Below are positions 24,330 through 38,286 of a stretch of 64,000 nt of DNA, piece by piece. The stretch is from Polyangiales bacterium. Lineage in GTDB: Bacteria; Myxococcota_A; Polyangia; Polyangiales; Polyangiaceae. The notes beneath the pieces are model-generated. The model was not told the DNA's origin and ran no database searches. It saw nothing but the letters and a program-made list of their open reading frames with translations. The stretch spans positions 576,001-640,000 of the forward strand of contig JBBRLQ010000002.1 in NCBI GenBank assembly GCA_038231275.1, read 5' to 3'. The stretch's first letter is position 1. Every line of letters starts with the position of its first letter. The translations under genes and the position numbers were made by a program.

Positions 24330-26114
24330 TCAGAGCCGTGGGCGCCACATCGCGGTGCCGAGGACCATGAAGGCCTTCACGTCGTCGCCGGTGATGGCCT
24401 CGCCTTGCACCGTGAAGAGGAGCACCGAGCTCGGAAAGATCATCGCGGTGCCGCCGAACGCCGACTGCACGAGCGAGGAATGGATCGAGCGGTATTGAAT
24501 GGTCGCGTAGCGGTAGTAGCTCGAGAGATCGAGGACATCGCGGAAGAGGCTCACGCCCGGGCCCGCGCTGCCGCCGTACATGTCGAGGTAGGTCGCGTGC
24601 GAGTAGTTCGCGGACGCGTCGATGCGAAGGATCTTGGCGATGCGAACGACCCGGGCCGCGGCGAAACCGCCCGTCATGCTCGGCTCGTCGCTCACGCCGA
24701 GATCGCCGACCCTGGTGCCGCCGAGGACCAGCGAGAACGTGCCCAGCTCGACGCCGGCGTCGATCGCGCCGACCGCCCGCTTGCTCACCTTTCCGTCGCA
24801 CACCTCGGGGGCCGGAGGAGCGCCGACGGCGGCGGGGATGGTTCGGCAGAACCAGGTGATGGGCAGGTACGAGGCGAGCCAGCGCGAGCGAATCGGTTGG
24901 CGAATGTCGGTACGGACGCCGAATTGGAAGGGGCCGATGCGCGTCGACGCGTCGAAGCCCGCGGCGGTGAGCTCGATCGCCGAAGCTCCCCAAGGGTTGT
25001 CCTTCGAAAAATTCGTGACCTCGAACGTGCCGCCGATGCGCGCGGGTCCTGGGTAGATCCCGACCACGCCCGAGACGCGGCGCTCGTCGAGAGATCCGCC
25101 GAACGTCGTGCCGTGCGCGACGAGCGCGGCTTCGGGGCGCAGGTCCGCCTCCGGTCGACTGAACGCTGCTTCTACGCCGAAGCGCTGCGCGTCGACGGCC
25201 GGCGCGCCGCTCAGCGGATCGGGCAAGACGCCGCCGAACGCGCCGACCGAGAATCCGCCGCCGACGGGCGCCCGCAGGCGGAGACCGTCGAGCGTGCCCA
25301 GCGTGCTCGCCGCGTAGCGCATGCGCCCGATCCCCGCGAAATAGCCGGCGCGGCTGTAGCTGGCGAGGGCCTCGCGGAGCCAGATCGTCGGACGCGCCGA
25401 TCCCCCATCGCGTGTGCTGAGGGGCGTCGCGGCCCAACGCTGGACCGACGCGTCGAAGTCGAACGCGACCGGCGCGGCGAACGGCTCGGCGTGGATGCGC
25501 GCGTTGATCTCCACGTGGCCGATCCCCGCGCCACGCGGCCCGATCGGGAGCAGCGCGCCCGCCGATGTCGACAGACGAACGTCCCAACGCCGGCTGCGCT
25601 CCGCGTCACCCAGGGGGACATACTTCGGCTTCTGCGCGCTCGCCGGCGCGGTCTCGTCCGTCCACCCCTGCTGCCACGTCGCCAGCGGCCGCGGCGGCGG
25701 GAGCTCCTTCGCCTTCTCGGTATCCTCGCCGACGATCGAAGCCTTCCCCTTCTCCTGCTCGCGGAGGAGATCGTCGCCGGTGTCCACGATCGCGAACGAC
25801 GCGGTCGATTGGACCACCGGGTATTCTTTGCGATCGATCGTGACCTTCGATCCTCTGTGCACGCCGCCCGCGGTGCCCGGCTTCACGTACGCCGCGCGGC
25901 CCGCGACTTCGACGACGACGACGTCGATCGACGTGGCGCCGCGCGGAGGAGGAGCCGGCGGAGGCACCGACACTGGACCGGGGGCTGGCGCGGGGACGTG
26001 CGCAGGCGCGGGCAGAGGCTTGGGCTTCGGCTTCCGCTGCGCCGCGGCCGTCGACGCGACGAGGCTCACGGCGAGCGCGAGGAGGCTCGCGACGTGGAGG
26101 ATCGAGAGCCTCAT
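24330..26114 (-). CDS. Predicted outer-membrane beta-barrel protein (porin of a porin-cytochrome module)
   Basis: Sec signal, Pro-rich linker, then many alternating amphipathic strands (FSVGAFGG, RFGVEAAF, LRIDASANY) and a terminal strand FMVLGTAMWRP. ATGA-coupled to the decaheme gene. Confidence 0.7.
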   Translation of the reverse strand: MRLSILHVASLLALAVSLVASTAAAQRKPKPKPLPAPAHVPAPAPGPVSVPPPAPPPRGATSIDVVVVEVAGRAAYVKPGTAGGVHRGSKVTIDRKEYPVVQSTASFAIVDTGDDLLREQEKGKASIVGEDTEKAKELPPPRPLATWQQGWTDETAPASAQKPKYVPLGDAERSRRWDVRLSTSAGALLPIGPRGAGIGHVEINARIHAEPFAAPVAFDFDASVQRWAATPLSTRDGGSARPTIWLREALASYSRAGYFAGIGRMRYAASTLGTLDGLRLRAPVGGGFSVGAFGGVLPDPLSGAPAVDAQRFGVEAAFSRPEADLRPEAALVAHGTTFGGSLDERRVSGVVGIYPGPARIGGTFEVTNFSKDNPWGASAIELTAAGFDASTRIGPFQFGVRTDIRQPIRSRWLASYLPITWFCRTIPAAVGAPPAPEVCDGKVSKRAVGAIDAGVELGTFSLVLGGTRVGDLGVSDEPSMTGGFAAARVVRIAKILRIDASANYSHATYLDMYGGSAGPGVSLFRDVLDLSSYYRYATIQYRSIHSSLVQSAFGGTAMIFPSSVLLFTVQGEAITGDDVKAFMVLGTAMWRPRL

Positions 26115-27145
26115 CGGCGCGCTCCTCCCGGGTGGCAGCTGAGGCACGAGGCACCGTCGCTCGCGACCGGTTTCTTGTGCTGCTGCATCAGGCGCATCGG
26201 ATCGTGCGTGTGGCAGCCGATGCATCGCACCGCGCGGGGCACCGCCGGCGAGGAGTGGCAGTCCTCGCAGGTCGCGGTGCGGTGCACGCCGAACGAAATC
26301 GGGAACCGCAGATCGTGGCCGGCCGGCGCAGCACGCAGACCGCTCGTCACCGCGCTCGTCCCGGTTCCTGGGATCGTCGCCGGCACCCACGCGATCGCGC
26401 GGTGGCAAAGGCTGCAATCGCGAGGGAACGGCGGGGTCGTGGCGTCACCCACGTGAGAAGGCCGCAGATCAGGCCGGCGGAAGTCCTTCTCGTGACAGGC
26501 GAAGCACTCGATGGGCGCGCCCGTCCAGCGGTGCTCGCTGGCGCGGCGATGGCACTCCGAGCAGTCCGCGAGCACGTGCATCCCGGTCAGCGGGAAGCGC
26601 GTCATGCGATGGATCTCGAGCGGCCTCGTCACCTTCCATCCGGCCGGCGAGTGGCAGTTGTCGCAGGATCGCGAGAGGCGCCCGCGATGGAAGTCCTCGT
26701 GGCAGCTGATGCACGATCGCTTGATGGCGCGCGTGCTGTTGTGGCACGAGACGCACGACGCGTGAATGTGCTGTCCGGTGAGCGGAAAGCCGGTGGTCGA
26801 GTGATCGAACTTCACCTCGCCGCCCGCCGCGTCCTTGTCCTTCCACGCGGTGGTGGAGTGGCATGCGCTGCACGCAACCGCGTCGGTGAAGCTCCGCTTG
26901 GCGGCCGCGCCCGCGGGGGATGGCGAGGTCGCGGCCTGCGTTGCGGACGGGGCCGGTGCGGCGGGCGGGGGGGACGAGGCCGACGGCGGCGGCGGGGCGG
27001 ACGAAGCGGACCACGCGGACGGCGCCGGCGCGAGAGGCGGGGGGCCGCCCGCCGGGGTTGCGCCCGGCTGCGCAAACGCGATCGGAGCGAGCGCGGCCAC
27101 GAACAGGCACAGCGCGAGCGCGAGGGTGCGGGGCGCGGTCGTCAT
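26111..27145 (-). CDS. Decaheme c-type cytochrome
   Basis: Signal peptide, Pro/Ala linker, 10 CxxCH, FDH..TGFPLTG.H repeats. Confidence 0.92.
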   Translation of the reverse strand: MTTAPRTLALALCLFVAALAPIAFAQPGATPAGGPPPLAPAPSAWSASSAPPPPSASSPPPAAPAPSATQAATSPSPAGAAAKRSFTDAVACSACHSTTAWKDKDAAGGEVKFDHSTTGFPLTGQHIHASCVSCHNSTRAIKRSCISCHEDFHRGRLSRSCDNCHSPAGWKVTRPLEIHRMTRFPLTGMHVLADCSECHRRASEHRWTGAPIECFACHEKDFRRPDLRPSHVGDATTPPFPRDCSLCHRAIAWVPATIPGTGTSAVTSGLRAAPAGHDLRFPISFGVHRTATCEDCHSSPAVPRAVRCIGCHTHDPMRLMQQHKKPVASDGASCLSCHPGGARR

Positions 27146-28983
27146 AGCTCCGCCCGCGCTTCGTGAGGGTTGGCGTGGCAGAACTTGCACTCGTTCGACG
27201 AGAGCCGCCACCGGATGGTCGGCTTGGCTTCACCGCGTACCGGCGCCATCGCGTGGCACTTCACGCACTCGGCCTTCGCGTGCTTCCCGGTCAACGCCCA
27301 GCCGGTGATCGCGACGTGATCGAAGCCCGGGATCTTGAACGCCTTCGTCGAGTGACACTTGTCGCACTCCTGCACCGGGGCCTTCATGCGGAACTGGCCG
27401 AGGTGAATGTCCTCGTGGCAGCCGCCGCAGTTGCGTGGCACGCCGCGGTAGCTCGCGCCGCTTCCCTTCTTGCGATCTTCGGGCGTCGGGTGGTGGCAGC
27501 TGTCGCACTGGGCCGTGGCGTGCACGCCGGTCAGCGGCCAGATGCGGTGATCGATCTTCGGGAGCTTCCATCCATTCGACTCGTGGCACTGCGCGCAGCC
27601 CCCGATCGCCATCTCTTTCGCGAACTGGTTGCCGTGCGGATTCGCGTGGCAGTCGGCGCACACTTGCTTGACGACGTGGAGATCCATGCGCGGGCGCGCC
27701 GCCTTGTGGCACTCGGAGCACGGCGTCGCGATGTGCTTGCCGATGAGCGGGAAGCGCGTCGTCGCGTGCGAGACCACGCTGAAGAGCGTGGGATAGAACC
27801 CCGGCGTCGCGTGGCACGGAGCGCACTCGCCTTTGTCCGCCTTGACGAACTCGCCCTTGTGCTTGTCCTCGTGGCAGTCTGCGCAGCGACCGAACGCGAG
27901 CTTTCGGTAGCGTGCCTCTCGTGGGATCTCCGGTTTGTGGCAGCCCGCGCACGGCGTGGCCTCGTGCTTGCCGGTGAGCGGGTACTCTGTCCGCGGATGG
28001 GCGGCGAGGCCGACGGACCGCGCCAGACCGAGCCACTGGATCGACGCGTGGCAGCTCCCGCACGCGCGTCCGAACGGCGCCTTGTGGATCGGCCGATGGC
28101 ACGACGCGCACTCTCGTCCCTTCGAAGGTGCGACGAGGTTGCCCTTGTCGTGGCACGTCTTGCACGCGACCTGCGCGTGTCCGTTGCCGAGGCTCGTGCC
28201 CGGATGCTTCGCGCCGCCGTGCTTGAACGTCACCGGCTTCCACTTCGTGTCCTCGTGGCAGTCGGGGCACGACGGACCGAGGCGCCCGTCGTGGACGTCC
28301 TTGTGGCAATCCTGGCAGACGGCGAACTTGAGCCCGACGTACTTCGGCGGCTCCATGTGGCACTTCGCGCAGAGGACCTTCTGGTGCGCGCCGCGCAGCG
28401 GAAACTTCGAGAGATCGTGGTCGAAGGTCTTGAGGTTGAGCTCCTTCCACGCCGTCTCGTTGTGGCAGTTGAGGCACGTCGCTCCGAAGCGCCCTTGGTG
28501 TTGATCCTTGTGGCACGGCACGCACGTCGTCCCGAGGCCGAGGAACGTCGGGTTGCCGCGCGCGTTGCTCTTGGTGTGGCACTTGTTGCACGCCGTCGTC
28601 TGGTGCGCGCCGTTCAGCGGCCAGCCGGTCTGCGCGTGATCGAGCTTGGTCTGATCTCCACCGGGCCATCGCATGAGCGCCCTCGCGCCCAGGTGCTCGG
28701 CGTGGCATTTCTCGCACGCCTGCCCCTTGAACTGGCGGCCGTGGAGGCCTTGCCCCGCCGCGATCCGCCCGCCGAGATCGCCGTGGCACTTGAGGCAGCC
28801 GCTCTGGTCGACGCGCTTTCCGGAGCTGTGGCATTCGCTGCAGTGCGTGTCTCCTTCGAGCGAGGCGTGCGCCTTCGACATCGGCCCCGGCGAAAGAAGC
28901 TGCGCGCGCGCGACACGGGCGGACACCATCACCAGAAAGGCGACCGCAACGCCGAGGACCACGCGGACGAGCGTCCGCTTCAT
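27142..28983 (-). CDS. Multiheme c-type cytochrome, 23 CxxCH (periplasmic)
   Basis: MKRTLVR signal, LSPGPMSKAH, 23 CxxCH in triheme repeats H..T.(F/W)PL.G.H. ATG overlaps the upstream TAA. Confidence 0.93.
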   Translation of the reverse strand: MKRTLVRVVLGVAVAFLVMVSARVARAQLLSPGPMSKAHASLEGDTHCSECHSSGKRVDQSGCLKCHGDLGGRIAAGQGLHGRQFKGQACEKCHAEHLGARALMRWPGGDQTKLDHAQTGWPLNGAHQTTACNKCHTKSNARGNPTFLGLGTTCVPCHKDQHQGRFGATCLNCHNETAWKELNLKTFDHDLSKFPLRGAHQKVLCAKCHMEPPKYVGLKFAVCQDCHKDVHDGRLGPSCPDCHEDTKWKPVTFKHGGAKHPGTSLGNGHAQVACKTCHDKGNLVAPSKGRECASCHRPIHKAPFGRACGSCHASIQWLGLARSVGLAAHPRTEYPLTGKHEATPCAGCHKPEIPREARYRKLAFGRCADCHEDKHKGEFVKADKGECAPCHATPGFYPTLFSVVSHATTRFPLIGKHIATPCSECHKAARPRMDLHVVKQVCADCHANPHGNQFAKEMAIGGCAQCHESNGWKLPKIDHRIWPLTGVHATAQCDSCHHPTPEDRKKGSGASYRGVPRNCGGCHEDIHLGQFRMKAPVQECDKCHSTKAFKIPGFDHVAITGWALTGKHAKAECVKCHAMAPVRGEAKPTIRWRLSSNECKFCHANPHEARAEL

Positions 28984-29891
28984 TAGAAGATCCACCGAAA
29001 GCCGTAGTACCAGGCGACGCCGATGTGCACCGACACGCTGAGGACCATCAAGAGCGCGAGGAAGCGATGAATCGAGCGCCACGAGCGCATCACCGCTCCG
29101 CCGGCGTGCGTGTCGACTTCCGAGGCCGCGAGCTGGCCGAGCTCCTCGATGAGCGCGCGAACGAACTTGGGGTCTTTTACTTCGACCACGCGCGCGAGCT
29201 TGTCGCCTCGAACGGCCTCTCCCATTCCGCGCCGCCGTTGCCTGGCCTCGAGGATCCAACGCGGCATCGTCACAACCGCGCGAAAGATCGACGCGTCGGC
29301 CGGGAGCCGCGTCACCGGCGCCGTCTTGACGAACTCCTCCACGCGCTTCGCGACGCCGGGCAACAGCGGCTGAATCTCCGCGAGTCGGTCCTTGAGCGGC
29401 TTGAGACCCGCCTTTGGGACGAGCGCGTAGAGGTAGAGGCCGATGAGGCCCGTGAGGACCACGATGCCGAGGCTCACCGACGTGAGCGTCGCGATCGGCG
29501 TGCGCAGCTGGAACGCCGAGTGGAACACCACGAGCAGCGACCCCACGAGCCCGGTGAAGACGTGGATGTTGAGCCACGTCTTCATGGTGCCGAACGAGTC
29601 TGGGATGTAACGGGCGAACCGCCGCCGCACGAGGTAGAGCAGGTTCGTCAGGATCAGCGCGGTCCCGACGATGCCGTAGCCGTGGCCCAAGAACCCGGAG
29701 GGGCTCAGCGTCCGGAAGTCCTGATGGTCGACGCGGGCGTCGAGGGAGAGCCGGTAGTAGCTCATGCCGCGCCAGAAGAGGAGCGCGGTCAGGAGCACGA
29801 GAATGAGCACCGTGAGGACCAGCGCGATGCGCCGCGGCTTCGCCGGCTCCGGCCCACCCGCGGGTCCGCTCGTCGTGACGACCTGGCTCAT
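28983..29891 (-). CDS. Integral membrane protein with four intramembrane His (cytochrome b/ferric-reductase-like, inferred)
   Basis: About 5 TM segments. WLNIHVFTG, VVFHSAF, WRSIHRF, SVHIGV. Coupled to the 23-heme gene. Confidence 0.7.
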   Translation of the reverse strand: MSQVVTTSGPAGGPEPAKPRRIALVLTVLILVLLTALLFWRGMSYYRLSLDARVDHQDFRTLSPSGFLGHGYGIVGTALILTNLLYLVRRRFARYIPDSFGTMKTWLNIHVFTGLVGSLLVVFHSAFQLRTPIATLTSVSLGIVVLTGLIGLYLYALVPKAGLKPLKDRLAEIQPLLPGVAKRVEEFVKTAPVTRLPADASIFRAVVTMPRWILEARQRRRGMGEAVRGDKLARVVEVKDPKFVRALIEELGQLAASEVDTHAGGAVMRSWRSIHRFLALLMVLSVSVHIGVAWYYGFRWIF

Positions 29892-30011: not shown

Positions 30012-30635
30012 TCAGAATCCGTCGGAGCGGCGCGCCGCGAGTGCGACCGCGCTCACCGTCTGCGGCGGCGCCCGGCGAGGCGCGCGAGTGGCCTTGCGCG
30101 AGTTTCTCTTCTCCGGCGTCGCGGTGGCCGACGGCGCGTCCTTCGCCGGCTTCGCCTCCGGCGTGATCGGCTTGGCGGCAGGGGCGACCGGAGAGACCGC
30201 AGCGAGCGGCGAGACCGGTGCGACGTTGGTGACCGTCGGCGGTGCAGCGATCGGCGCGGCGACCGGCGCAGGTGCAGGCGCGGCTACCGCGGCGACGACT
30301 GCAGGAGCAGCGACGGGCGCATCCGTCGCGCCGCGCCCCAGAACGATCGCGTGCCCTCGCTCGACGATGAACGACCGCGTCGACCCATCCACGAAGATCG
30401 CGCCGACGACGACGAGGAGGGCCGCGGCGATTACGTACCGGACCTTCCCGTGACGCTTCTTCGGGGCGATGCCCTGAAGCGCGTTGAAGAACGCCGGGCT
30501 CAGCTCGACGAGGGCCGTCTGAATTTCCGTGAGCGACTCGAACGCCCTGCGGATGACCGGCGGGTCGTAGTCCGTCGCGTCTAGGAGGGCCAATCGACGC
30601 GCGCTCGAGGGGGGAGGGTTAGCCACGTTCGACAT
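30012..30635 (-). CDS. Hypothetical single-pass membrane protein with Pro/Ala-rich tail
   Basis: One hydrophobic helix VIAAALLVVVGAIFV and a low-complexity C-terminus. Confidence 0.55.
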   Translation of the reverse strand: MSNVANPPPSSARRLALLDATDYDPPVIRRAFESLTEIQTALVELSPAFFNALQGIAPKKRHGKVRYVIAAALLVVVGAIFVDGSTRSFIVERGHAIVLGRGATDAPVAAPAVVAAVAAPAPAPVAAPIAAPPTVTNVAPVSPLAAVSPVAPAAKPITPEAKPAKDAPSATATPEKRNSRKATRAPRRAPPQTVSAVALAARRSDGF

Positions 30636-30841: not shown

Positions 30842-32005
30842 CTACTTCACGCCGGCCGCGTGGCACTTCAGGCAATAGTTCGTCGTCACGTCCCCGGTCG
30901 GGTAGTTCGGGACGGGGCCTCCGCCGTCGGGCCGTGAGAGGTGCCAGGCGTCGATGGCCGGGCTGACGTGCGAGCCGAGGTGGCAGTGGATGCAGTCGGT
31001 GTTCGCGCCGCCGGCCGAAACGCCCTTCGCGAGGACGTGGCAATCCTGGCAGGTGATGCCGGGGTTCGCGTGGATGCCCGTAGTCACCGCGAACTTCGCC
31101 TCGGGGTGAGGCCCAGTGATCGCCGGCTTCCAGCCCGCCATCTGGTGGCAGTTGAGGCACGTATGCGGGAACGTCGAGTGGTTCGGGAACGTGCTCGCAT
31201 CCGCAGCCGCCTTGTGACACGCGTAGCAATCGGTCGTCGTGCCTTTGTACACGGGCGTCGGGCCCGTATGGCAGCCGACGCACGCGACGAGGACGTGCTT
31301 CCCCTGAAGCGGCCACGTGTGATTGTAGGAGCTCGGCTTCCATCCGGCTGCCGTGTGGCAATCCGAGCAGCTCGTGGAGAGCCCCTTGTGGATCGGGCTC
31401 GCCGCCTTGTCGGCATCCTTCTGGTGGCAGTCGGTGCACCCCTTGGGCGTGCCCTTGTAGAGCGGCGGATCGCCGGTGTGGCAGGAGTTGCACGGCGTGG
31501 TCGCGTGCACGCCGTCGAGCGGCCACGGATGCTGGAACGTCGACGGCTTGAACCCGACGTCGTTGTGGCAAAGCTTGCAGTCGAGCGGAAAGCCGGTGTG
31601 CTTCGGAGCGGTCGCGCCGTCGTAATCTTTTTTGTGGCACCCCTGGCAGTCCGTCGGCGTTTCGTTTGGATGGAAGCCGGTCGTGTGGCACGCCGTGCAC
31701 GTCGGGCCCACGTGCTTGTTCTGGAGCGGCCACCAGAAGTGGTTCTGCACTTGGGCGGGAACCCAGCCCTGCGTCGAGTGGCAGTCGTTGCACGTGTTCG
31801 GCAATTTGCCGACGTGCACGGGGTTCGCCGCCGCGTTGTAGCCCGCGGCGTGACACGAGTAGCACGCGGTGTTCTTCGCCTCCGCCGTGTCGTGGATGTT
31901 CTGCTGCCGGCCACACGCGAACGCGGCGACGAGCGCGGCGACGCCCAACGAAATCGTCAGGGCCGCGTGCGCTCGTCCTTTGGGGAGTGTGGCCGGTGGC
32001 TGCAT
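30842..32005 (-). CDS. 14-heme c-type cytochrome lipoprotein
   Basis: Lipobox-like AAFAC, 14 CxxCH, H.WPL.G.H triheme repeats. Start could be 32032. Confidence 0.9.
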   Translation of the reverse strand: MQPPATLPKGRAHAALTISLGVAALVAAFACGRQQNIHDTAEAKNTACYSCHAAGYNAAANPVHVGKLPNTCNDCHSTQGWVPAQVQNHFWWPLQNKHVGPTCTACHTTGFHPNETPTDCQGCHKKDYDGATAPKHTGFPLDCKLCHNDVGFKPSTFQHPWPLDGVHATTPCNSCHTGDPPLYKGTPKGCTDCHQKDADKAASPIHKGLSTSCSDCHTAAGWKPSSYNHTWPLQGKHVLVACVGCHTGPTPVYKGTTTDCYACHKAAADASTFPNHSTFPHTCLNCHQMAGWKPAITGPHPEAKFAVTTGIHANPGITCQDCHVLAKGVSAGGANTDCIHCHLGSHVSPAIDAWHLSRPDGGGPVPNYPTGDVTTNYCLKCHAAGVK

Positions 32006-32043
32006 CTCGTTCCGTTGCCTCGATGAGTCCACCTAGCCGCGGC

Positions 32044-35000
32044 TCACCACTTCGAGGCGCCGTGGCATGTGCTCGTGCACGCCAACGTCGTCGTATTGTA
32101 CGTCGTCATCTTCGGGCCCGCGACGTCCTTCACCCCATTGAGGTGAAGGGTCATGTTGACGGTGCCCGCCCCGTTCTTGTGAGTGTAGCCGGTGCCGTGG
32201 CAATCGCCGCATACGTTGCCGCTGTGCGTGCCGTGCTTACCCGTGCTCGGCGGCGTGGTGTGGCAGGAGCCGCAGACCATCGCTCCGCCGGTCCAGGACG
32301 GCGCGAAGGCGGTGGTGCCACCGGGGAAGTCGCCGTGGCAATACGAGTTCGTGCAGGTGGTGCCGTTCCACGCGGGGACGACGCCTCCGGTCTTCGCGAA
32401 CGCGCCGAAGTTCACCTGCACGACGCCGTCGCTGTGGAGGTTGGTCGACGGGACGGCGTGGCAGTCGTTGCACTGCACCGGCTTGGCGGCGAATGTGGCC
32501 TTGTTCAAGTGGCCCTGGTGAGCGCCGACCGCGAGGGTCGTCGTCGCGGTCTCGCCCTTGGTGCCGAGCGGAGGCGCCGAGGTCTGGCGGGTGTCGGCGC
32601 CTGCGATTCCGACGCGCGTGCCGTCGCCGTGGCACGAGTAGCAGCTGAGCGAGCTCTGATCGACATCGATGACGCCGTTGATGTGCGTCGTCTTGTTGAC
32701 CGTTTTGCCAGTCGCCGAATAACCGGCGCCGTGGCACGCGGAGCAAACGATCGCGGGGTTCGCGTGCGGCGGAGTGGCGGGAGGCGCTCCGTGGCACGAG
32801 GCGCACCCGATGGTGAGGTTGGTCCACGTCGCCGTGGCGTTCGCGCCGCCGGAGAAGTCGCCGTGACAGTACGACGTCGTGCACGTCGCGCCGCTCCACA
32901 CCGGCGTCACACCGCCGGTCTTGGCGAGCGTGCCCCAGGACATGTCCACCTTGCCGTTGCTGTGGCTGTTGCTGATCGGGACCACGTGGCACTCGTTGCA
33001 CTGGGTGGGCGTGGCGAACGTTCCGGTGTTGACGTGGCCGTCGTGCGCGCCGACCGCGCGCGTCGAGGTCGCGGTTTCACCCTTCGAGCCGTTCGGCGGC
33101 GACGCCTTCACCTGAGGATCGGCGCCTGCAACGCCCGCGCGCGCCGTCGTGCCGTGGCACGAGCTGCACGTCATCGTGGTCTGGTCGACGTCGATGACGC
33201 CGTTGATGTGGGTGGTCTTGTTGACCGTCTTCGCGGTCGCGTCGTAGCCAGCGCCGTGGCACGACGCGCACGGGGTCGCCGGGTTCGTGTGCGCCGGAGT
33301 CGCGGGCGGCAACGCGTGGCACGAGCCGCACGTGACCGTCCCGGTGCCCGTCCAGGTTGGCGCGGCCGCGGTGTTTCCACCGGTGAAGTTGCCGTGACAG
33401 TACGACGCCGTGCACGACGTTCCGTTGAACGCCGGAGCGACGCCGCCCGTCTTGGCGAGCGCACCGAAGAGCATGTCGATCTTGCCGTTGCTGTGCGCCG
33501 TGCTGATCGGAACGACGTGGCACTCGTTGCACTGGATCGGTGTGCTGAAGGTCCCCGTGTTGACGTGCGCTTGGTGCGCGCCGACCGGGAGCGTCGATCC
33601 CGCAGGCGAGACCGGTGGAGACGCCGCCACATCCAAGTCCGCGCCGGCCACGCCAACGCGCGTCGCCGTCCCGTGGCACGAGGTGCACGTGAGGTTGCCG
33701 TTGCCGGTGGGCGTGTCGATGACGCCGTTGATGTGCGTGGGCTTGTTGACGGTCTTCGCCGTCGCGTCGTAGCCGGCGCCGTGGCAGGTCGCGCACGGAG
33801 TCGCGGGGTTCCCGTGCGGCGCGACGCCGGGGTTGGGCGGCAACGCGTGGCACGAGCCGCACGCCTGCGCGCCGGGAACCGCCCACGACGGAGTGTTCGC
33901 GTTGGCGCCGCCGGTGAAGTTGCCGTGGCAGTAGTTGTTGCAGCCGGTGCCGTTCCACGTCGGCACGGCGCCCGCGGTCTTCGCCAACGCGCCGAACAGA
34001 ATGTCCACGACGCCGTTGCTGTGGTTCATGCTCGTCGGCACGACGTGGCAATCCGCGCACTGCAGCGGCTTGCCGGTGAGATCGAGGGCATTGACGTGCG
34101 CCGCGTGCGCGCCGACCGCGCGCGTCGTGGCGAGCGTCTCGCCCTTCGAGCCGATCGGCGGCGCCGACTTGATGTTCGGATCTGCGCCCGCGACGCCGAC
34201 GCGGGTGAGATCGCCGTGGCACGAGCTGCACGTGGCCGACGTAGTGTTCACGTTGACGGCGCCGTCGATGTGCGTCGCCTTGTTGACCGTCTTCGCGGTC
34301 GCCGAGTAGCCCGCGCCGTGGCAGGTGGAGCACTCCATCGCCGGGTTCGAGTGCGGCGGCGTCGGGGGCGGCGTTCCGTGGCACGAGCCGCAGTTCATCG
34401 GCCCGCTGGTCCACACCGGGGCCGACGTCGTCGCGCCTCCGGGGAAGTTGCCGTGGCAATAGCTGCTCGTGCAGGAGTTGCCGTCCCACACGGGAGACGC
34501 GCCCGCGGTCTTCGCCATGCCACCGAACGCGATGTCCACGATGCCGTTGCTGTGCGACATGGCCGTGGGGATGACGTGGCAGTCCGCGCATTGGAGCGGA
34601 TTGGCAGACCAGTCGGATTTGTTCACGTGCGCTTGGTGCGCGCCGACGGCGCGATCGGTCGTGAGGACCTCGCCGTTGGTGCCCTTCGGCGGAGCCACCT
34701 TCAGGCTCGGATCGGCGCCCGCGATGGCGACGCGCGTGGCGTCACCGTGGCACGTCGTGCACGTCGCGTTCGGGGGAACCGCGCCGGCGCAGAACCCGAC
34801 GTAGTCGGCCTGCATCCACGCTTCGAACGCCTGGAGCTCGGCGGCCGTGGCGGGGTTGTTGAATGCCGACGGCGGCATCGGCGTCTGGATCTGCTGCATC
34901 CTCTCGAACGCGACCTCTCCGACGGTCTTGCTCTTGTCCACGGTCGACCACTGGACCATGTCGGCCGCGGTCATGAGCGGGACGAGCGCGCCGCCCGCCG

Positions 35001-35271
35001 GCGGGTTCGAGTGACACACCTGGCATTTGGTGGTGAGGAGCGTCTTCACCTCGCACGTGAAGCCCGCGCCTTTCGGCAGCTGCGCCACCGGCCGGGGCGG
35101 ACCGCCGAGCTCGTTCGGAATGCGATTCGCAGCCGTCGGCCCGGGGACTCCGATCCCGTCGGCGCCCGCATCCTGCGCGCCCGCGTCGTCGGATTTGGCG
35201 CTGCACCCGAAGAGGAGCGCGCAGGCGACGAGGCCGGCGGCGAACCATGCGAAGGGCGAGCGGACGACCAT
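32044..35271 (-). CDS. Giant CxxxxCH/CxxCH-type multiheme cytochrome lipoprotein (27 motifs)
   Basis: Lipobox LFGC. 21 CxxCH, 4 CX4CH and 2 CX3CH. Five tandem pentaheme repeats. Confidence 0.92.
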   Translation of the reverse strand: MVVRSPFAWFAAGLVACALLFGCSAKSDDAGAQDAGADGIGVPGPTAANRIPNELGGPPRPVAQLPKGAGFTCEVKTLLTTKCQVCHSNPPAGGALVPLMTAADMVQWSTVDKSKTVGEVAFERMQQIQTPMPPSAFNNPATAAELQAFEAWMQADYVGFCAGAVPPNATCTTCHGDATRVAIAGADPSLKVAPPKGTNGEVLTTDRAVGAHQAHVNKSDWSANPLQCADCHVIPTAMSHSNGIVDIAFGGMAKTAGASPVWDGNSCTSSYCHGNFPGGATTSAPVWTSGPMNCGSCHGTPPPTPPHSNPAMECSTCHGAGYSATAKTVNKATHIDGAVNVNTTSATCSSCHGDLTRVGVAGADPNIKSAPPIGSKGETLATTRAVGAHAAHVNALDLTGKPLQCADCHVVPTSMNHSNGVVDILFGALAKTAGAVPTWNGTGCNNYCHGNFTGGANANTPSWAVPGAQACGSCHALPPNPGVAPHGNPATPCATCHGAGYDATAKTVNKPTHINGVIDTPTGNGNLTCTSCHGTATRVGVAGADLDVAASPPVSPAGSTLPVGAHQAHVNTGTFSTPIQCNECHVVPISTAHSNGKIDMLFGALAKTGGVAPAFNGTSCTASYCHGNFTGGNTAAAPTWTGTGTVTCGSCHALPPATPAHTNPATPCASCHGAGYDATAKTVNKTTHINGVIDVDQTTMTCSSCHGTTARAGVAGADPQVKASPPNGSKGETATSTRAVGAHDGHVNTGTFATPTQCNECHVVPISNSHSNGKVDMSWGTLAKTGGVTPVWSGATCTTSYCHGDFSGGANATATWTNLTIGCASCHGAPPATPPHANPAIVCSACHGAGYSATGKTVNKTTHINGVIDVDQSSLSCYSCHGDGTRVGIAGADTRQTSAPPLGTKGETATTTLAVGAHQGHLNKATFAAKPVQCNDCHAVPSTNLHSDGVVQVNFGAFAKTGGVVPAWNGTTCTNSYCHGDFPGGTTAFAPSWTGGAMVCGSCHTTPPSTGKHGTHSGNVCGDCHGTGYTHKNGAGTVNMTLHLNGVKDVAGPKMTTYNTTTLACTSTCHGASKW
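32130..34770 (-). repeat. Five tandem intragenic repeats of about 520-545 bp (pentaheme unit)
   Basis: Units start near 34765, 34233, 33690, 33171 and 32647, each CxxCHG...GAH..H...CxxCH...HSNG...CX3-4CHG...CxxCH...CxxCHG.GY...H(I/L)(N/D)G. Confidence 0.9.
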
Positions 35272-35331
35272 GGTGTCCGTGAGTGCCGCGGGCTCTCCGA
35301 AAGGTTGCACCAACGTTGGCGGAAAATCGCC

Positions 35332-35390: not shown

Positions 35391-36125
35391 TCAATGTTGC
35401 ACGAGGGTCCCCATCATCGTGTCGAACTCGGCGCGCGCCGCGAGGACCGTCTTCGCCGGGCCGGTGATCTTGAAAAAGTGGGGCATTCCGGCCGTCGCGA
35501 CGATGGACCCGAGCAACGCCCAGCCCGCGCCGCCATCCTTCCCCATGCCGCCTTCGAACTTGCCCTGGACCTCGACGATCGTGACGGCGAGCGCGCCGAC
35601 GTTGCGTGTGCTGCGCTTCGCCGTCTTGCGCGATTCGGCGTCGAACTGGCCGACCCATCTGTCCGCGTTCGCTTCGACCGAGCCGCCTGCTTGCGTGATC
35701 GAGAGCTCCGCGTCCTCGGTGTCCCCCGGCGCGCGCGGCACGCGGTAGGTGGCGAGGCGCATCGTGCTCGCGTTCGGAACGAGCACCCACCGCGCCGGCG
35801 CCTTGTACTCGAGCGACGACTGCGCTCCGGCGGGAGACGGATTCAGCTGCGAGCCCGTGGGATCCAGCGGATCGACCGCAGGATGCCCCGCCGGCAACGG
35901 CTGCGCGCCCATCGGATCGGCGCCGCCCGTCGGCGGGTGCCCGGGCGGCAGCGGCTGGTCGTTGTCGACGAACGGCATCGCCGCAGGCGGCGGGCTCGAC
36001 GGAGGAGACGTGGACATCGCCTCTGAGGCAGGCGGCGCCATCGATTTACCTGCGGCGAACGCAGCCGCAGAGGCGATGGCGACGAGGGCGAAGACCGAGG
36101 GGAGGCTGAGGCGCACATTGGTCAT
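35391..36125 (-). CDS. Exported hypothetical protein with two LP(P/A)GHP motifs
   Basis: Signal peptide, PLPPGHPP and PLPAGHP, globular domain P..W...MRLATY...GGSVEANADRWVGQF...FFKITGP. Confidence 0.75.
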   Translation of the reverse strand: MTNVRLSLPSVFALVAIASAAAFAAGKSMAPPASEAMSTSPPSSPPPAAMPFVDNDQPLPPGHPPTGGADPMGAQPLPAGHPAVDPLDPTGSQLNPSPAGAQSSLEYKAPARWVLVPNASTMRLATYRVPRAPGDTEDAELSITQAGGSVEANADRWVGQFDAESRKTAKRSTRNVGALAVTIVEVQGKFEGGMGKDGGAGWALLGSIVATAGMPHFFKITGPAKTVLAARAEFDTMMGTLVQH

Positions 36126-36942: not shown

Positions 36943-38286
36943 TTACTTCGACAACGGCTCTCCGTAGAGCGTTCGTATCCCGATTCCCATGCTCTTCAAG
37001 AAGTCGAAGGGCGGAATCGTCCCCATGAACAGGATGATGTAGTCGTTCGGGATCTCGACGCGCTCGCCCTTCTTGTCGAGGACCAACCTGTCCGGATGGA
37101 TCTCCTTCACGCCGGTCGAGTAGAAAATGTGGACGAGCCCGGCCTTCTCCATCTGCTCGATTTTGATCTTGTTGTCGTCTTTGCAACGTGAGAGCGCGTC
37201 TCCACGCACGAGCAGGTGGACGGTGTTCCCGAGCTTCTGATCTCCCACGCGCTGCGCCGCCTCGACCGCCGAGTCGCCGGCGCCGACGACGACGATCTTG
37301 CACCCCTGGTACTGCTCGGGGTCGCTCAGCTTGAAGGTGACCTTCTCGGTGTCCTCGTTCGGTAGCCCGAGCTTCCTCGGCGTGCCGCCCACGCCGACCG
37401 CGAGGATGACCTTCCTCGCGCGCACGATCCCGGCGCTCGTCTCGACCTCGAAAACCTTTCCGTTGGTCTTCGCGTTGACGAACTTCACGCGCTCGTCGAC
37501 TTGGAGGCCCACCTTCGCGCAGACGTCCTTCCAGTACTTGAGGAGGTCCTCCTTCACGATGCGGTTCTTCGGAAAGCTCATTTTCCCGATGAGCGGCAGC
37601 GCGGCGGGGTGGCTCATGACCAACTTTTGGCGGGGGAAGTTGTAGACGGTGCCGCCGAACGTATTTTGCTCGATGCAGCGGAACTTGGCCTTGAGCTCGA
37701 TGCACTTCAGCGACGCCGCGATCCCCGCGGGGCCCGCGCCGACGACGAGGACGTCCACGTCGGCGGGAGCGGACCTGTCCAGGTTGGCGACCGCGTGGGT
37801 CGCCGCGTAGACGCCTTGCTTGATCGCGTTGGCGATGAGGCCCATCCCTCCGAGCTCGCCGGCGATGTAGAGACCGTGGACGTTCGTCTCGTAGTTCTCG
37901 TTGTAGTCGGGGACCTGCTTGCCGGTCTTCTCGCTGCCGAAGACCATCGTGATCGCGTCGACGGGGCACGAGCGGTAGCAGAGCGTGTGGCCCACGCACT
38001 TGGTGGGGCTCACCAGCGCGGGTAGGCCGTTGACCATCTGCAAGATGTCCCCTTCGGGACAGACCTGAGTGCAAATGCCGCAGCCCGAGCACTTGTCGAG
38101 ATCGATCTTCGGGTAGAGGGCGTACGCGTCCGTCTTGCCGGACTTGATGGTGGCTTGGAGCTTCTCTTCGGCCTTCTTATTTGCCTTCGCTCGGCGCCTT
38201 CCAAATATCGCGTAGATCACGATGGTGACGAGGATCACCAGGACGACCGACAGACTGGTCTTGCTCAGGTTCGCTAAGAAATGCAT
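36943..38286 (-). CDS. Membrane-anchored 2x[4Fe-4S] ferredoxin fused to a TrxR-fold FAD/NAD(P) oxidoreductase
   Basis: N-terminal TM helix, CSGCGICTQVCP, CVGHTLCYRSCP, VVGAGPAG, VVGAGDSAVE. No redox CxxC in the flavin domain. Confidence 0.88.
   Translation of the reverse strand: MHFLANLSKTSLSVVLVILVTIVIYAIFGRRRAKANKKAEEKLQATIKSGKTDAYALYPKIDLDKCSGCGICTQVCPEGDILQMVNGLPALVSPTKCVGHTLCYRSCPVDAITMVFGSEKTGKQVPDYNENYETNVHGLYIAGELGGMGLIANAIKQGVYAATHAVANLDRSAPADVDVLVVGAGPAGIAASLKCIELKAKFRCIEQNTFGGTVYNFPRQKLVMSHPAALPLIGKMSFPKNRIVKEDLLKYWKDVCAKVGLQVDERVKFVNAKTNGKVFEVETSAGIVRARKVILAVGVGGTPRKLGLPNEDTEKVTFKLSDPEQYQGCKIVVVGAGDSAVEAAQRVGDQKLGNTVHLLVRGDALSRCKDDNKIKIEQMEKAGLVHIFYSTGVKEIHPDRLVLDKKGERVEIPNDYIILFMGTIPPFDFLKSMGIGIRTLYGEPLSK

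Follow-up and report, generated by a model that had tools for sequence, protein, structure and literature searches.

A lipoprotein cytochrome with 27 heme motifs in a PCC3-like gene cluster of a Polyangiales bacterium

The window analyzed in this study, a 64,000-nucleotide stretch of contig JBBRLQ010000002.1 from a Polyangiales bacterium (assembly GCA_038231275.1), encodes a lipoprotein c-type cytochrome of 1075 aa (32044..35271), identified by its heme motifs and by matches to TIGR01904, PF09698, PF14522 and PF14537. This gene and all the other features described below lie on the minus strand. On balance we lean towards the view that the protein is the outermost multiheme conduit of an extracellular electron-transfer pathway, located at the cell-surface end of a PCC3-like cluster. 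Its sequence does not set it apart as a novel type of protein: it is an ordinary-sized, typical five-unit member of the large, annotated TIGR01904 / PF09698 family.

Results

The reading frame of the 27-heme gene runs from an ATG at 35271 to a stop codon at 32044-32046, and its relatives share the same ATG start with the N-terminal pattern M-x-x-R-S-P-(F/L)-A-W. The protein contains 27 heme motifs (21 CxxCH, 2 Cx3CH and 4 Cx4CH) in the order 1 + 5x5 + 1, which agrees with the original prediction of a monoheme cap followed by five pentaheme units and a last CX3CH motif. The cap motif lies at residue 83 and the terminal motif at 1065, with the motifs of the five units, R1 to R5, in between at residues 171, 228, 267, 294 and 314 (R1), 348, 405, 444, 471 and 493 (R2), 529, 581, 620, 648 and 668 (R3), 702, 758, 797, 823 and 843 (R4), and 877, 934, 973, 1000 and 1021 (R5). 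The chain was also correctly described as Thr/Gly/Ala-rich, since it is composed of 12.6% T, 12.2% G and 13.6% A (38% for A+T+G), along with 5.4% C and 5.0% H. Because a protein of 1075 residues with this composition is calculated to contain about 0.16 CxxCH motifs and the identical 27-motif pattern recurs in relatives at 61-79% identity, a chance origin of the motifs is excluded.

The assignment as a lipoprotein is borne out by a signal peptide with a lipobox (residues 1-23, LLFG-C23; 35203..35271), whose Cys is preceded by a hydrophobic segment in each of the 16 listed proteins that share the 27-heme layout. It is followed by a low-complexity A/G/D/P-rich stretch (residues ~24-68; 35068..35202) that differs in sequence and length among relatives; these ~45 residues are probably a disordered, flexible tether. 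The monoheme cap (residues ~69-164; 34780..35067) has the elements FTCEV, KCQxCH and PMPP, which are invariant in 16/16 of the 27-heme-layout proteins, and two additional conserved cysteines, C73 and C160. It holds one His, that of its CQVCH motif, and five Met, leaving no spare His, so that its heme ligation is probably of the His/Met type, with a ligand suggested by the invariant PMPP. Its similarity to class I cytochrome c PF00034 is weak (E 0.028, under the cut-off), and its scores against SoxX and against class I cytochromes c were likewise all below their cut-offs. The potential of a His/Met heme is usually above that of bis-His hemes. Such a heme at the end of the chain speaks against an outward-directed wire, in which it would have no evident function. 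At the other end, the C-terminal tail (32044..32103) carries the 27th motif, CTSTCH, a Cx3CH motif present in 16/16 of the group. The sequence of this tail, LACTSTCHG, can be compared with LTCTSCHG at the unit starts, and in one relative (P0014) the unit profile gives six stretches; the terminal Cx3CH heme thus looks like what is left of a sixth unit cut short after its putative heme 1.

The five pentaheme units are 177, 181, 173, 175 and 186 aa long and are 53-68% identical in pairwise comparisons. They comprise R1 (residues 165-341; 34249..34779), with a motif spacing of 2,2,4,2,2, R2 (342-522; 33706..34248), R3 (523-695; 33187..33705), R4 (696-870; 32662..33186) and R5 (871-1056; 32104..32661). 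Four of the five units have the paired arrangement of a CxxxxCH followed by a CxxCH, the exception being R2, in which the third motif is a Cx3CH (CNNYCH); this variant is found in 3/16 of the group (P0003, P0004 and P0006), while the other 13 have Cx4CH at this position. Apart from the motifs, R1 through R4 contain exactly five His residues apiece, located in GAHxxH, HSNG, PxH and THI(N/D)G, so that the count originally made for these repeats is exact for each of them. R5 has seven non-motif His, two of which are conserved and sit between motifs 4 and 5. Overall, the 54 His of the protein consist of 27 motif His and 27 others, and 26 of the latter are at positions conserved among units or relatives, the single exception being the His of THKNG in R5. 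The His complement can accordingly be read as 27 proximal ligands, 26 putative distal ligands and one spare, with each repeat unit predicted to carry five bis-His hemes. The motif Cys and His residues and the distal His are at least 90% conserved across alignments of 123 and 66 sequences. The units have a density of 35 aa per heme and follow each other closely, with a gap of only ~6 residues between THINGVIDV and the CxxCH of the next unit; the Pfam triheme and tetraheme profiles span the unit boundaries (PF14522 at residues 490-585 and PF14537 at residues 292-353).

We predict that all 27 motifs would be loaded with covalent heme. The protein has a lipoprotein-type export signal, and CcmE of System I was matched twice in the genome, which is 94% complete and in which ResB was not found. 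CX3CH and CX4CH are among the heme-binding motifs that Soares et al. 2024 (PMC11492766) describe as known, and cytochrome c3 has been described as having two CXXXXCH sites.

The original prediction had tied the protein to the Geobacter-type CX4CH/CX2CH cytochromes, and this tie is confirmed by a match to TIGR01904 (NCBIfam, CxxxxCH/CxxCH cytochrome domain) of 177.5 bits, as compared to a cut-off of 27, with an E value of 3.1e-53 and five stretches. PF09698 (GSu_C4xC__C2xCH) likewise matches in five stretches (44.8 bits; cut-off 21.7), and the Pfam Cytochrome_C7 profile gives 77.3 bits. Among the listed relatives, the names given in the source include "CxxxxCH/CxxCH domain-containing protein" (Anaeromyxobacter, Labilithrix and Myxococcales). 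The cytochromes of this family in Geobacter, Anaeromyxobacter and other Myxococcota have the same paired Cx4CH...CxxCH signature. However, the curated 73-position family model describes only two of the five repeat hemes, whereas the period here is ~175 aa and five hemes, and the 27-heme protein adds the monoheme PMPP cap and the terminal Cx3CH. Of 40 related genomes, G001, from the same genus, was the only one with a full-length counterpart.

A search with a profile of the unit matched 2739 representative proteins at E <= 0.001, the largest of which is 5264 aa long, has 30 stretches and 151 heme motifs, and also possesses a lipobox. In the family, the number of unit copies per chain ranges from 2 to ~30. 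The comparison of repeat number among homologues that had been proposed as a check on the original prediction gave 3-10 full units per protein among the 120 homologues listed. The accompanying idea that the length of the chain is set by the number of repeats is consistent with this range and with the 30 stretches in a single chain, and so it stands for the wider family. It does not hold within the protein's own 27-heme-layout group, since all 16 listed members (the window's own included) have five units and the units cluster by position on a tree.

A PDB sequence search at E <= 1 returned no relative of the 27-heme protein except for one chance match, and a literature search under the family accession found no description of a TIGR01904/PF09698 member. 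We know of no member of the family that has been purified or structurally solved. An AF2 model of R3 and R4 together, calculated without hemes, was of moderate quality (pLDDT 72.3, pTM 0.53). With this model, Foldseek gave no matches at E <= 0.001 and VIA-align gave none at Z >= 2 among 48161 chains; given a heme-free model of moderate quality, these null results are weak negative evidence. The linear wire shape that we infer for the protein is of a kind already described: single-chain wires have been proposed for giant repeat cytochromes by He et al. 2017 (PMC5566968) and Soares et al. 2024 (PMC11492766), so the idea is not new, and the AF2 models of other giant cytochromes presented by Hoover et al. 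2023 (PMC9900912) and Soares et al. 2024 are long and linear.

The 27-heme gene is part of a cluster encoding four cytochromes, with 27, 14, 23 and 10 hemes. Upstream of it lies a gene for a secreted protein of 244 aa with no Pfam match (35391..36125), for which the Atlas gave a weak PsbP/DcrB lead (0.87). The gene for the 14-heme cytochrome, whose N-terminus is lipobox-like (VAAFAC), begins 12 bases downstream of the 27-heme gene (30842..32032) and is followed by genes for a 207-aa protein (30012..30635) and a 302-aa inner-membrane protein (28983..29891). The latter has two WX3HX13H motifs (residues 106 and 271), four distinct hydrophobic segments in a crude hydropathy scan, and weak matches to DUF4405 and cytochrome b561, and is a candidate di-heme b quinol/quinone module. 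The helix after its first motif contains TGLIG rather than SGXXG, and SGFLG occurs at residue 65. The 23-heme cytochrome (27142..28983; 613 aa, 26.7 aa per heme) has a signal peptide without a lipobox, and the 10-heme cytochrome (26111..27145) is secreted. The stop codon of the 10-heme gene overlaps the start of the gene for an outer-membrane beta-barrel (ATGA), and in two public records relatives of these two proteins have adjacent locus tags. The barrel (24330..26114), recognized by AF2 modeling and a fold search, has ~22 strands and a small N-terminal beta domain. Its model (pLDDT 85.0) has 22 long strands across residues 177-590 and matched 298 PDB chains at E <= 0.001; all of the top matches listed were outer-membrane barrels, the best being generic porins and ushers. 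No hematite-binding-type motif was found.

All eight genes of the cluster are syntenic in locus L001, where the 14-heme, 244-aa and 207-aa proteins are 81%, 82% and 54% identical to those described here. In locus L023 a 14-heme gene with 48% identity lies beside the 27-heme gene, and the pair is downstream rather than upstream of the same core, so the linkage of the pair to the core survives rearrangement. The core itself, consisting of the membrane protein, the 20-23-heme and 10-heme cytochromes and the barrel, usually occurs without a 27-heme-type protein: among 12 loci of at least 9 kb with a 10-heme relative and a barrel, of which two pairs seem to be duplicate sequences and several have short flanks, a unit-type cytochrome was present in only two (L001 and L023). 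For both the barrel and the 10-heme protein, every relative with a named source comes from Myxococcota.

Discussion

The gene cluster resembles the PCC3 porin-cytochrome clusters, a likeness based on the list of parts. As described by He et al. 2017 (PMC5566968) and Hoover et al. 2023 (PMC9900912), PCC3 clusters contain a barrel, which here has 22 strands; a periplasmic cytochrome of ~21 hemes, for which the counterpart here is the secreted 23-heme protein; a heme-rich cytochrome of Thr/Ser/Ala/Gly-rich repeats, a description that the 27-heme protein fits; and a ~300-aa membrane protein in which the WX3HX13H motif occurs twice, as it does in the 302-aa protein. In the account of He et al., this motif pair is the hallmark of the PCC3/PCC4 membrane proteins, and SGXXG lies on helix 4, where TGLIG takes its place here. 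That account reports PCC3 clusters in Alpha-, Beta- and Gammaproteobacteria, while the host here belongs to the Myxococcota and its cluster has two additional cytochromes with 10 and 14 hemes.

The same logic, in which translation of a secreted decaheme cytochrome is coupled to that of a barrel and one or more lipoprotein multiheme cytochromes are added, is seen in MtrCAB of Shewanella and OmbB-OmaB-OmcB of Geobacter, although the lipoprotein here has 27 hemes and not 10-12. Membership of the OmcA/MtrC family was rejected (29.5 bits for the MtrC/MtrF domain PF22113, cut-off 30; no match to TIGR03507), as was that of the DmsE/MtrA family (47.8 bits, cut-off 192.2) and of the NrfB pentaheme cytochromes (NF008659, 41.4 bits versus 184; TIGR03146, 23.5 versus 166.6). 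The GSU1996-type cytochrome c7 polymers, including the 12-heme "nanowire", are likewise single polypeptides of tandem multiheme modules, but their period is three hemes rather than five, and neither GSU1996 nor other PDB chains gave a sequence match at E <= 1 or a fold match to the R3-R4 model. The OmcS, OmcE and OmcZ subunits in the PDB showed no similarity in sequence, or in fold to this moderate, heme-free two-unit model. A parallel by description is the 27-heme single-chain "long wire" of G. metallireducens, for which Soares et al. 2024 (PMC11492766) give an AlphaFold length of ~350 Angstroms and a mass of 130.7 kDa, and which, together with GSU2884/OmcH/OmcG, shares the heme count of 27 and the proposed role as a monomeric extracellular wire. 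It is stated there to be outside any porin-cytochrome operon, and the terms PF09698, GSu_C4xC, IPR010176 and CxxxxCH do not occur in those supplementary files of the paper that were searched as text.

In the conduit that we favor, the 27-heme gene shares a cluster, or a transcript, with the components of a PCC3-like pathway, and its product would run from the lipid anchor through the ~45-residue linker, the monoheme cap and the five units to the last Cx3CH heme. Its closely spaced hemes would form an unbroken path for electrons, with the cytochrome inside the barrel at one end and, beyond the cell, insoluble or polymeric partners at the other, e.g., iron or manganese oxides, humic matter or other cells. 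The outer-membrane barrel and the secreted cytochromes encoded nearby hint at surface exposure, and electrons may flow outward. Against this role stand the moderate, heme-free R3-R4 model without a fold match, the frequent absence of a unit-type cytochrome beside the core, the single full-length counterpart among 40 related genomes, the failure to find a hematite-binding-type motif, and the His/Met heme at one end. Most bacterial lipoproteins face the periplasm by default, which would fit a different arrangement in which the protein is anchored in the inner membrane or in the periplasmic leaflet of the outer membrane and either connects the quinol module with the barrel complex or stores electrons between the two. 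In the Mtr and Geobacter porin-cytochrome systems, in contrast, the external cytochrome is the lipoprotein, and the two non-lipidated secreted cytochromes of the cluster, with 23 and 10 hemes, already suit the periplasmic leg. Long multiheme cytochromes are described as able to span the periplasm or store charge (PMC9900912; PMC11492766), and the presence of the core without a 27-heme-type protein in 10/12 loci is what might be seen for an accessory buffer, yet the Thr/Gly/Ala-rich repeats fit the extracellular PCC3 cytochromes as He et al. 2017 (PMC5566968) portray them. We consider a periplasm-facing protein to be unlikely, while still a serious competitor to the cell-surface conduit.

The units could instead fold back into a globular or plate-like capacitor that stores up to 27 electrons and whose reach is independent of the number of repeats. 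Charge storage is one of the two pressures suggested for very high heme counts (PMC11492766), but 35 aa per heme leaves scant polypeptide for a globular shell, there are no linkers between units, with profile matches crossing their boundaries, and scaling to 30 units and 151 motifs per chain is easier for a linear array. The published models of other giant cytochromes, to which this protein is likened by description, are also elongated (PMC9900912; PMC11492766), and a compact capacitor seems to us quite improbable. That both end hemes are unlike the 25 repeat hemes, and that weak matches of the cap under the cut-off include SoxX as well as class I cytochromes c, might point to a terminal reductase or oxidase in which a soluble substrate reacts at one special heme, that of the cap or of the terminal Cx3CH, with the other hemes feeding it. 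We give very little credence to such a catalytic role, since the count of His and Met would fill all six coordination positions of each heme, and neither CxxCK or another catalytic motif nor an above-cut-off match to NrfA/NrfB, octaheme or other enzyme families was found.

The evidence for the cell-surface conduit can be combined with that from the family into a broader proposal, which we offer tentatively and with some doubt: that the ~175-aa unit builds structurally unsolved single-chain heme cables, that the structural module is offset from the sequence repeat, and that in this organism such a cable forms the interchangeable outer attachment of a PCC3-like conduit. Cable length would be set by the number of units, from 2 to ~30 (~10 to 151 hemes), and heme 5 of each unit would sit against hemes 1 and 2 of its successor, an offset that would explain the orphan "heme 1" motif at chain ends. 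Here the cable would have five units and a His/Met end-cap.

Giant multiheme cytochromes are candidate one-molecule wires that could take respiratory electrons tens of nanometres past the cell. At 1075 aa, the 27-heme protein is small enough for practical expression and cryo-EM, and it has a clean fivefold internal symmetry and defined ends. The cluster indicates a PCC3-like conduit in Myxococcota outside Anaeromyxobacter, which matters for identifying the organisms behind the redox cycling of iron and humic matter in soil and sediment. If the cable proposal is true, soil Polyangia, which are usually seen as aerobic predators and polymer degraders, would gain the capacity for extracellular electron exchange.

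Reading frame and heme-binding motifs

The 27-heme lipoprotein cytochrome is encoded on the minus strand, where an ATG at 35271 and a stop at 32044 delimit a product of 1075 aa. The frame is already open at a TTG at 35313, and we have taken 35271 as the start because the relatives begin at the same methionine. On the plus strand, 32044..35271 yields an Arg/Ala-rich translation that is an artefact, so the gene was assigned to the minus strand; the coordinates of the original prediction do match a gene, though a minus-strand one. The window has a G+C content of approximately 64-73% and belongs to an assembly of 9.28 Mb in 164 contigs that is 94% complete, and the named relatives are records from Labilithrix, Polyangiaceae, Myxococcales and Anaeromyxobacter, which places the organism in Myxococcota.

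A motif count found all 27 predicted heme-binding motifs (21 CxxCH, four Cx4CH and two Cx3CH), arranged as had been proposed in a monoheme cap, five pentaheme groups and a final Cx3CH: the first motif is at residue 83, the next 25 form five groups of five, and the last is at residue 1065. The motif spacing per unit is 2,2,4,2,2, except in the second group, where it is 2,2,3,2,2. The units, R1 to R5, range from 173 to 186 aa in length and share 53-68% identity in pairs, with 61 invariant columns that include the ten motif cysteines, the five motif histidines and five other histidines, namely H44 and H47 (GAHxxH), H71 (HSNG), H139 (PxH) and H166 (THING). The original observation was sound and its structural parsing accurate, including the count of exactly five non-motif histidines in each of R1-R4 (R5 has seven) and the Thr/Gly/Ala-rich character of the chain (Ala 13.6%, Thr 12.6%, Gly 12.2%). 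The third motif of R2 (33706-34248, minus strand) is Cx3CH in the 27-heme protein and its two closest relatives and Cx4CH in 13 of the 16 proteins that share its layout, and in other relatives it is the fourth motif, in R2 or R4, that is Cx3CH; the cysteine spacing at these unit motifs therefore tolerates changes of one residue.

Heme ligands, the cap and maturation

Of the 54 histidines in the protein, 27 are within motifs and 27 are outside them. R5 has two extra histidines, one between motifs 4 and 5 that the relatives conserve and a non-conserved one in THKNG, and removal of the latter therefore leaves 26 conserved distal histidines for the 26 non-cap hemes. The cap (34780-35067, minus strand) contains five methionines, its sole histidine is that of the motif, and its PMPP, FTCEV and KCQxCH segments are invariant in 16/16 proteins of the same layout. 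Because the cap has no spare histidine, its PMPP is invariant and 26 distal histidines are conserved, the simplest reading, drawn from conservation, is that the protein would carry 26 bis-His hemes and one His/Met heme. The potential of a His/Met heme is normally above that of bis-His hemes, and a His/Met cap would give the 27-heme chain a puzzling polarity.

The cysteines can be accounted for similarly, since 54 of the 58 are in motifs and the others are C17 in the signal peptide, C23 in the lipobox, and C73 and C160 in the cap. The latter two (in FTCEV and G-x-C-x-G) are outside the heme motifs and invariant in 16/16 proteins, and a C73-C160 disulfide may staple the cap domain. At loose thresholds the cap gave weak family matches to PF00034 (E 0.028) and SoxX (E 0.089), both below their cut-offs. 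The genome (94% complete assembly) has two matches to CcmE and none to ResB, which indicates maturation by System I. Variant spacings such as CX3CH and CX4CH are matured by the Ccm system of E. coli. Both are listed among the known heme-binding motifs by Soares et al. 2024 (PMC11492766). In cytochrome c3, two of the sites are CXXXXCH.

Family membership and repeat number

The 27-heme protein, with its five units, is typical of a large family that is annotated but experimentally uncharacterised. It scores 177.5 bits against NCBIfam TIGR01904 (cut-off 27) and 44.8 bits against Pfam PF09698 (cut-off 21.7), in five stretches in each case, and two generic multiheme profiles, PF14522 (c7-like) and PF14537 (c3-like), match it as well. 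It falls just under the cut-off of 30 for the MtrC/MtrF domain, at 29.5 bits, and under those of the DmsE/MtrA and NrfB families. A sequence search of the PDB found no related chain, its sole match (E 0.53) being a cystathionine synthase, and the hematite-binding motif, [ST]-hydrophobic-[ST]-P-[ST], was looked for and not found. Our literature search on TIGR01904 returned no paper, the papers found on Myxococcota multiheme porin-cytochromes included nothing concerning this system as judged by title and abstract, and a 2026 peat preprint made no mention of Myxococcota, PCC3 or nanowires.

A whole-protein scan of the genome collection gave one true relative, in the Myxococcales MAG locus L001, and one weak match in Desulfovibrio. 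A search of 5.8 billion proteins, restricted to lengths of 591-1882 aa, gave 760 hits at E <= 0.001 among 8000 candidates scored. Among the 120 of these hits that were listed, motif counts range from 17 to 57 and the number of full units is three in 5 proteins, four in 9, five in 30, six in 18, seven in 29, eight in 21, nine in 7 and ten in 1. When a profile built from the five units was searched against 1.84 billion representatives, it returned 2739 proteins at E <= 0.001, with 1821 remaining at 1e-10 and 624 at 1e-30; 129 of the best 150 were newly returned, with 10-151 motifs (median 32). The largest of those 129, P0364, is a protein of 5264 aa with a lipobox-like N-terminus, 30 matched stretches and 151 heme motifs. 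A second giant member of the family has 4309 aa and 126 motifs.

It had been suggested that the length of the chain is set by repeat number. The spread of unit counts shows that repeat number does vary widely across the family; however, it is constant at five in 16/16 proteins of the 27-heme group. These 16 of the 120 listed relatives, the window's protein included, are 1063-1096 aa long and 61-79% identical, and share an architecture of 27 motifs, cap, five units and terminal Cx3CH. When 109 units were placed in a quick maximum-likelihood tree, those from the 16 proteins clustered by position, with 8 label changes where the minimum is 4 and shuffles average 49.2 (0/200 shuffles were as low as 8), and positions 1 and 2 are sisters, as are 3 and 4. 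The relative P0017 has three nearly identical adjacent units, evidence that tandem expansion continues in other parts of the family.

Module boundaries and shape

The Pfam triheme and tetraheme profiles find their best matches in the 27-heme protein across the unit borders, one at residues 292-353 taking in R1 hemes 4-5 and R2 heme 1, and one at residues 490-585 taking in R2 heme 5 and R3 hemes 1-2. Only about 6 residues separate the end of a unit from the first cysteine of the next, the C-terminal tail LACTSTCHG resembles the unit start LTCTSCHG, and the relative P0014 matches the unit profile in six stretches. From sequence only, we infer that the hemes could form one unbroken chain through successive units, and that the last motif could be heme 1 of a sixth unit that is truncated.

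An AF2 model of units R3-R4, built from a 66-row alignment, has a pLDDT of 72.3, a pTM of 0.53 and scant regular secondary structure, as is usual in heme-dominated folds. The model gave 0 matches at E <= 0.001 in a Foldseek search of the PDB and 0 at Z >= 2 in a VIA-align search of 48161 chains. The case for a linear heme array is indirect, and is made by the density of 35 aa per heme within units, the linker-free units, the scaling up to 30 units and the long, linear AF2 models published for other giant cytochromes (Soares et al. 2024, PMC11492766; Hoover et al. 2023, PMC9900912). The supplementary text of Soares et al. 2024 (PMC11492766) has no family identifiers that tie its 27-heme Geobacter protein to the one described here.

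Gene neighbourhood and its likeness to PCC3

All of the cluster neighbours of the 27-heme gene share its strand. In transcription order, a gene for a secreted protein of 244 aa that belongs to no known family (35391-36125) lies directly upstream of the 27-heme gene (32044-35271), which is followed after 12 bases by that of a 14-heme cytochrome with its own lipobox-like signal (30842-32032). Then come the genes for a 207-aa protein with no assigned function (30012-30635), a 302-aa membrane protein (28983-29891), a 23-heme cytochrome with an ordinary signal peptide (27142-28983), a 10-heme cytochrome (26111-27145) whose stop overlaps the next start (ATGA), and lastly a 594-aa protein without a Pfam match (24330-26114). 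Two genes upstream of the cytochrome cluster, 36943-38286 (minus strand) encodes a 447-aa fusion of a 4Fe-4S dicluster domain and a pyridine nucleotide-disulphide oxidoreductase, which is 92% identical and syntenic in L001.

The AF2 model of the 594-aa protein (pLDDT 85.0) has 22 long antiparallel strands at residues 177-590 and a small N-terminal beta domain. Foldseek matched it to 298 PDB chains (E <= 0.001), of which the top ones listed are all outer-membrane barrels (MOMP, FimD/PapC pores, AlgE and Occ porins). Pfam and NCBIfam at loose thresholds gave nothing above cut-off for the barrel, the 244-aa protein or the cap, and an Atlas look-up gave weak leads to BBP2_2 for the barrel (0.86) and PsbP/DcrB for the 244-aa protein (0.87). 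Complex prediction for barrel residues 52-594 with 10-heme residues 70-344 scored 0.80, 0.10 and 0.11, with a median of 0.11 where the mark is 0.32, values that count neither for nor against a complex.

The 302-aa membrane protein carries two copies of WX3HX13H, which lie at residues 106 and 271. This motif is described by He et al. 2017 (PMC5566968) as the hallmark of the PCC3/PCC4 membrane proteins, and the pair is taken there to bind two b hemes. The PCC3 class in that account consists of a porin, a periplasmic cytochrome (median 21 hemes), an extracellular Thr/Ser/Ala/Gly-rich repeat cytochrome and a roughly 300-aa membrane protein (PMC5566968), a parts list which the window cluster largely fits. 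It differs from PCC3 in having two additional cytochromes, and TGLIG in place of SGXXG.

Conserved core and movable accessories

Eight of eight cluster genes are syntenic in L001, at identities of 54-93%, with the 244-aa protein in the same place at 82%. A metagenome contig scan that used the 10-heme protein as its anchor retained 79 loci, 29 of them of at least 9 kb, and a close relative of the 10-heme protein occurs together with the barrel in 12 of these 29, among which two pairs seem to be the same sequence and many flanks are short. Eleven of the 12 add the two-motif membrane protein and either a 20-23-heme cytochrome or one 33-heme frame; the latter, a stop-to-stop reading and candidate fusion of the 20-23-heme and 10-heme cytochromes, is seen in L021 and L029. 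The four-gene core (24330-29891, minus strand, in the window) thus recurs with different or no extra cytochromes, its loci being L017, L021, L023, L026, L027, L029, L030, L031, L032, L035 and L041.

A unit-type cytochrome is present in only 2 of the 12 core loci, L001 and L023. In L023 the 27-heme protein is 63% identical, with a matching motif pattern and a lipobox, and the 14-heme relative is 48% identical; the pair lies downstream of the barrel, not upstream of the membrane protein. This changed position and the rarity of the pair at core loci argue that the 27-heme and 14-heme cytochromes behave as an accessory that can move relative to a conserved core, which fits the variable outer cytochrome of known conduits (Butler et al. 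2010; He et al. 2017, PMC5566968). Among 40 related genomes, a full-length counterpart is found only in the same-genus genome G001 (87% identical), and partial matches to the family occur in four more. One further family gene is present in the window's genome, a 511-aa frame with 12 motifs and two units in locus L088 (contig C42, 42000-57080), which shows no barrel or 10-heme relative within the available 15 kb, where the contig ends. This frame adjoins open frames of 25, 6 and 4 motifs.

A more distant core is present in L057 (15071-21406, plus strand), with a 779-aa two-WX3HX13H protein and 20-heme and 10-heme cytochromes. After it come a 14-heme frame and an open frame of 2112 aa or more with 59 heme motifs that runs off the locus and has no match to the unit profile. 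The 59-motif frame is a different giant cytochrome in an equivalent genomic role.

Proposed electron path

The idea of a single-chain wire is already published for giant repeat cytochromes. What is added here is the five-heme period as the real repeat of the TIGR01904/PF09698 family, the closed His/Met ligand bookkeeping of the 27-heme protein, a span across the family from 2 to 30 matched stretches in one chain, and a PCC3-like gene context in Myxococcota. The 27-heme protein may be linear and exposed at the surface.

In the path that we propose, electrons would leave the quinone pool through the 302-aa membrane protein, a candidate di-heme-b protein, pass along the 23-heme periplasmic cytochrome, cross the barrel by way of the 10-heme cytochrome within it, and be transferred onto the surface lipoprotein cytochromes. 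The flow could be in either direction, because PCC3 has been proposed for iron oxidation and the Anaeromyxobacter and Geobacter relatives reduce metals. By scaling from the 350 Angstrom estimate for a published 27-heme model (PMC11492766), the 27-heme chain would lengthen the reach of such a path by perhaps 25-35 nm.
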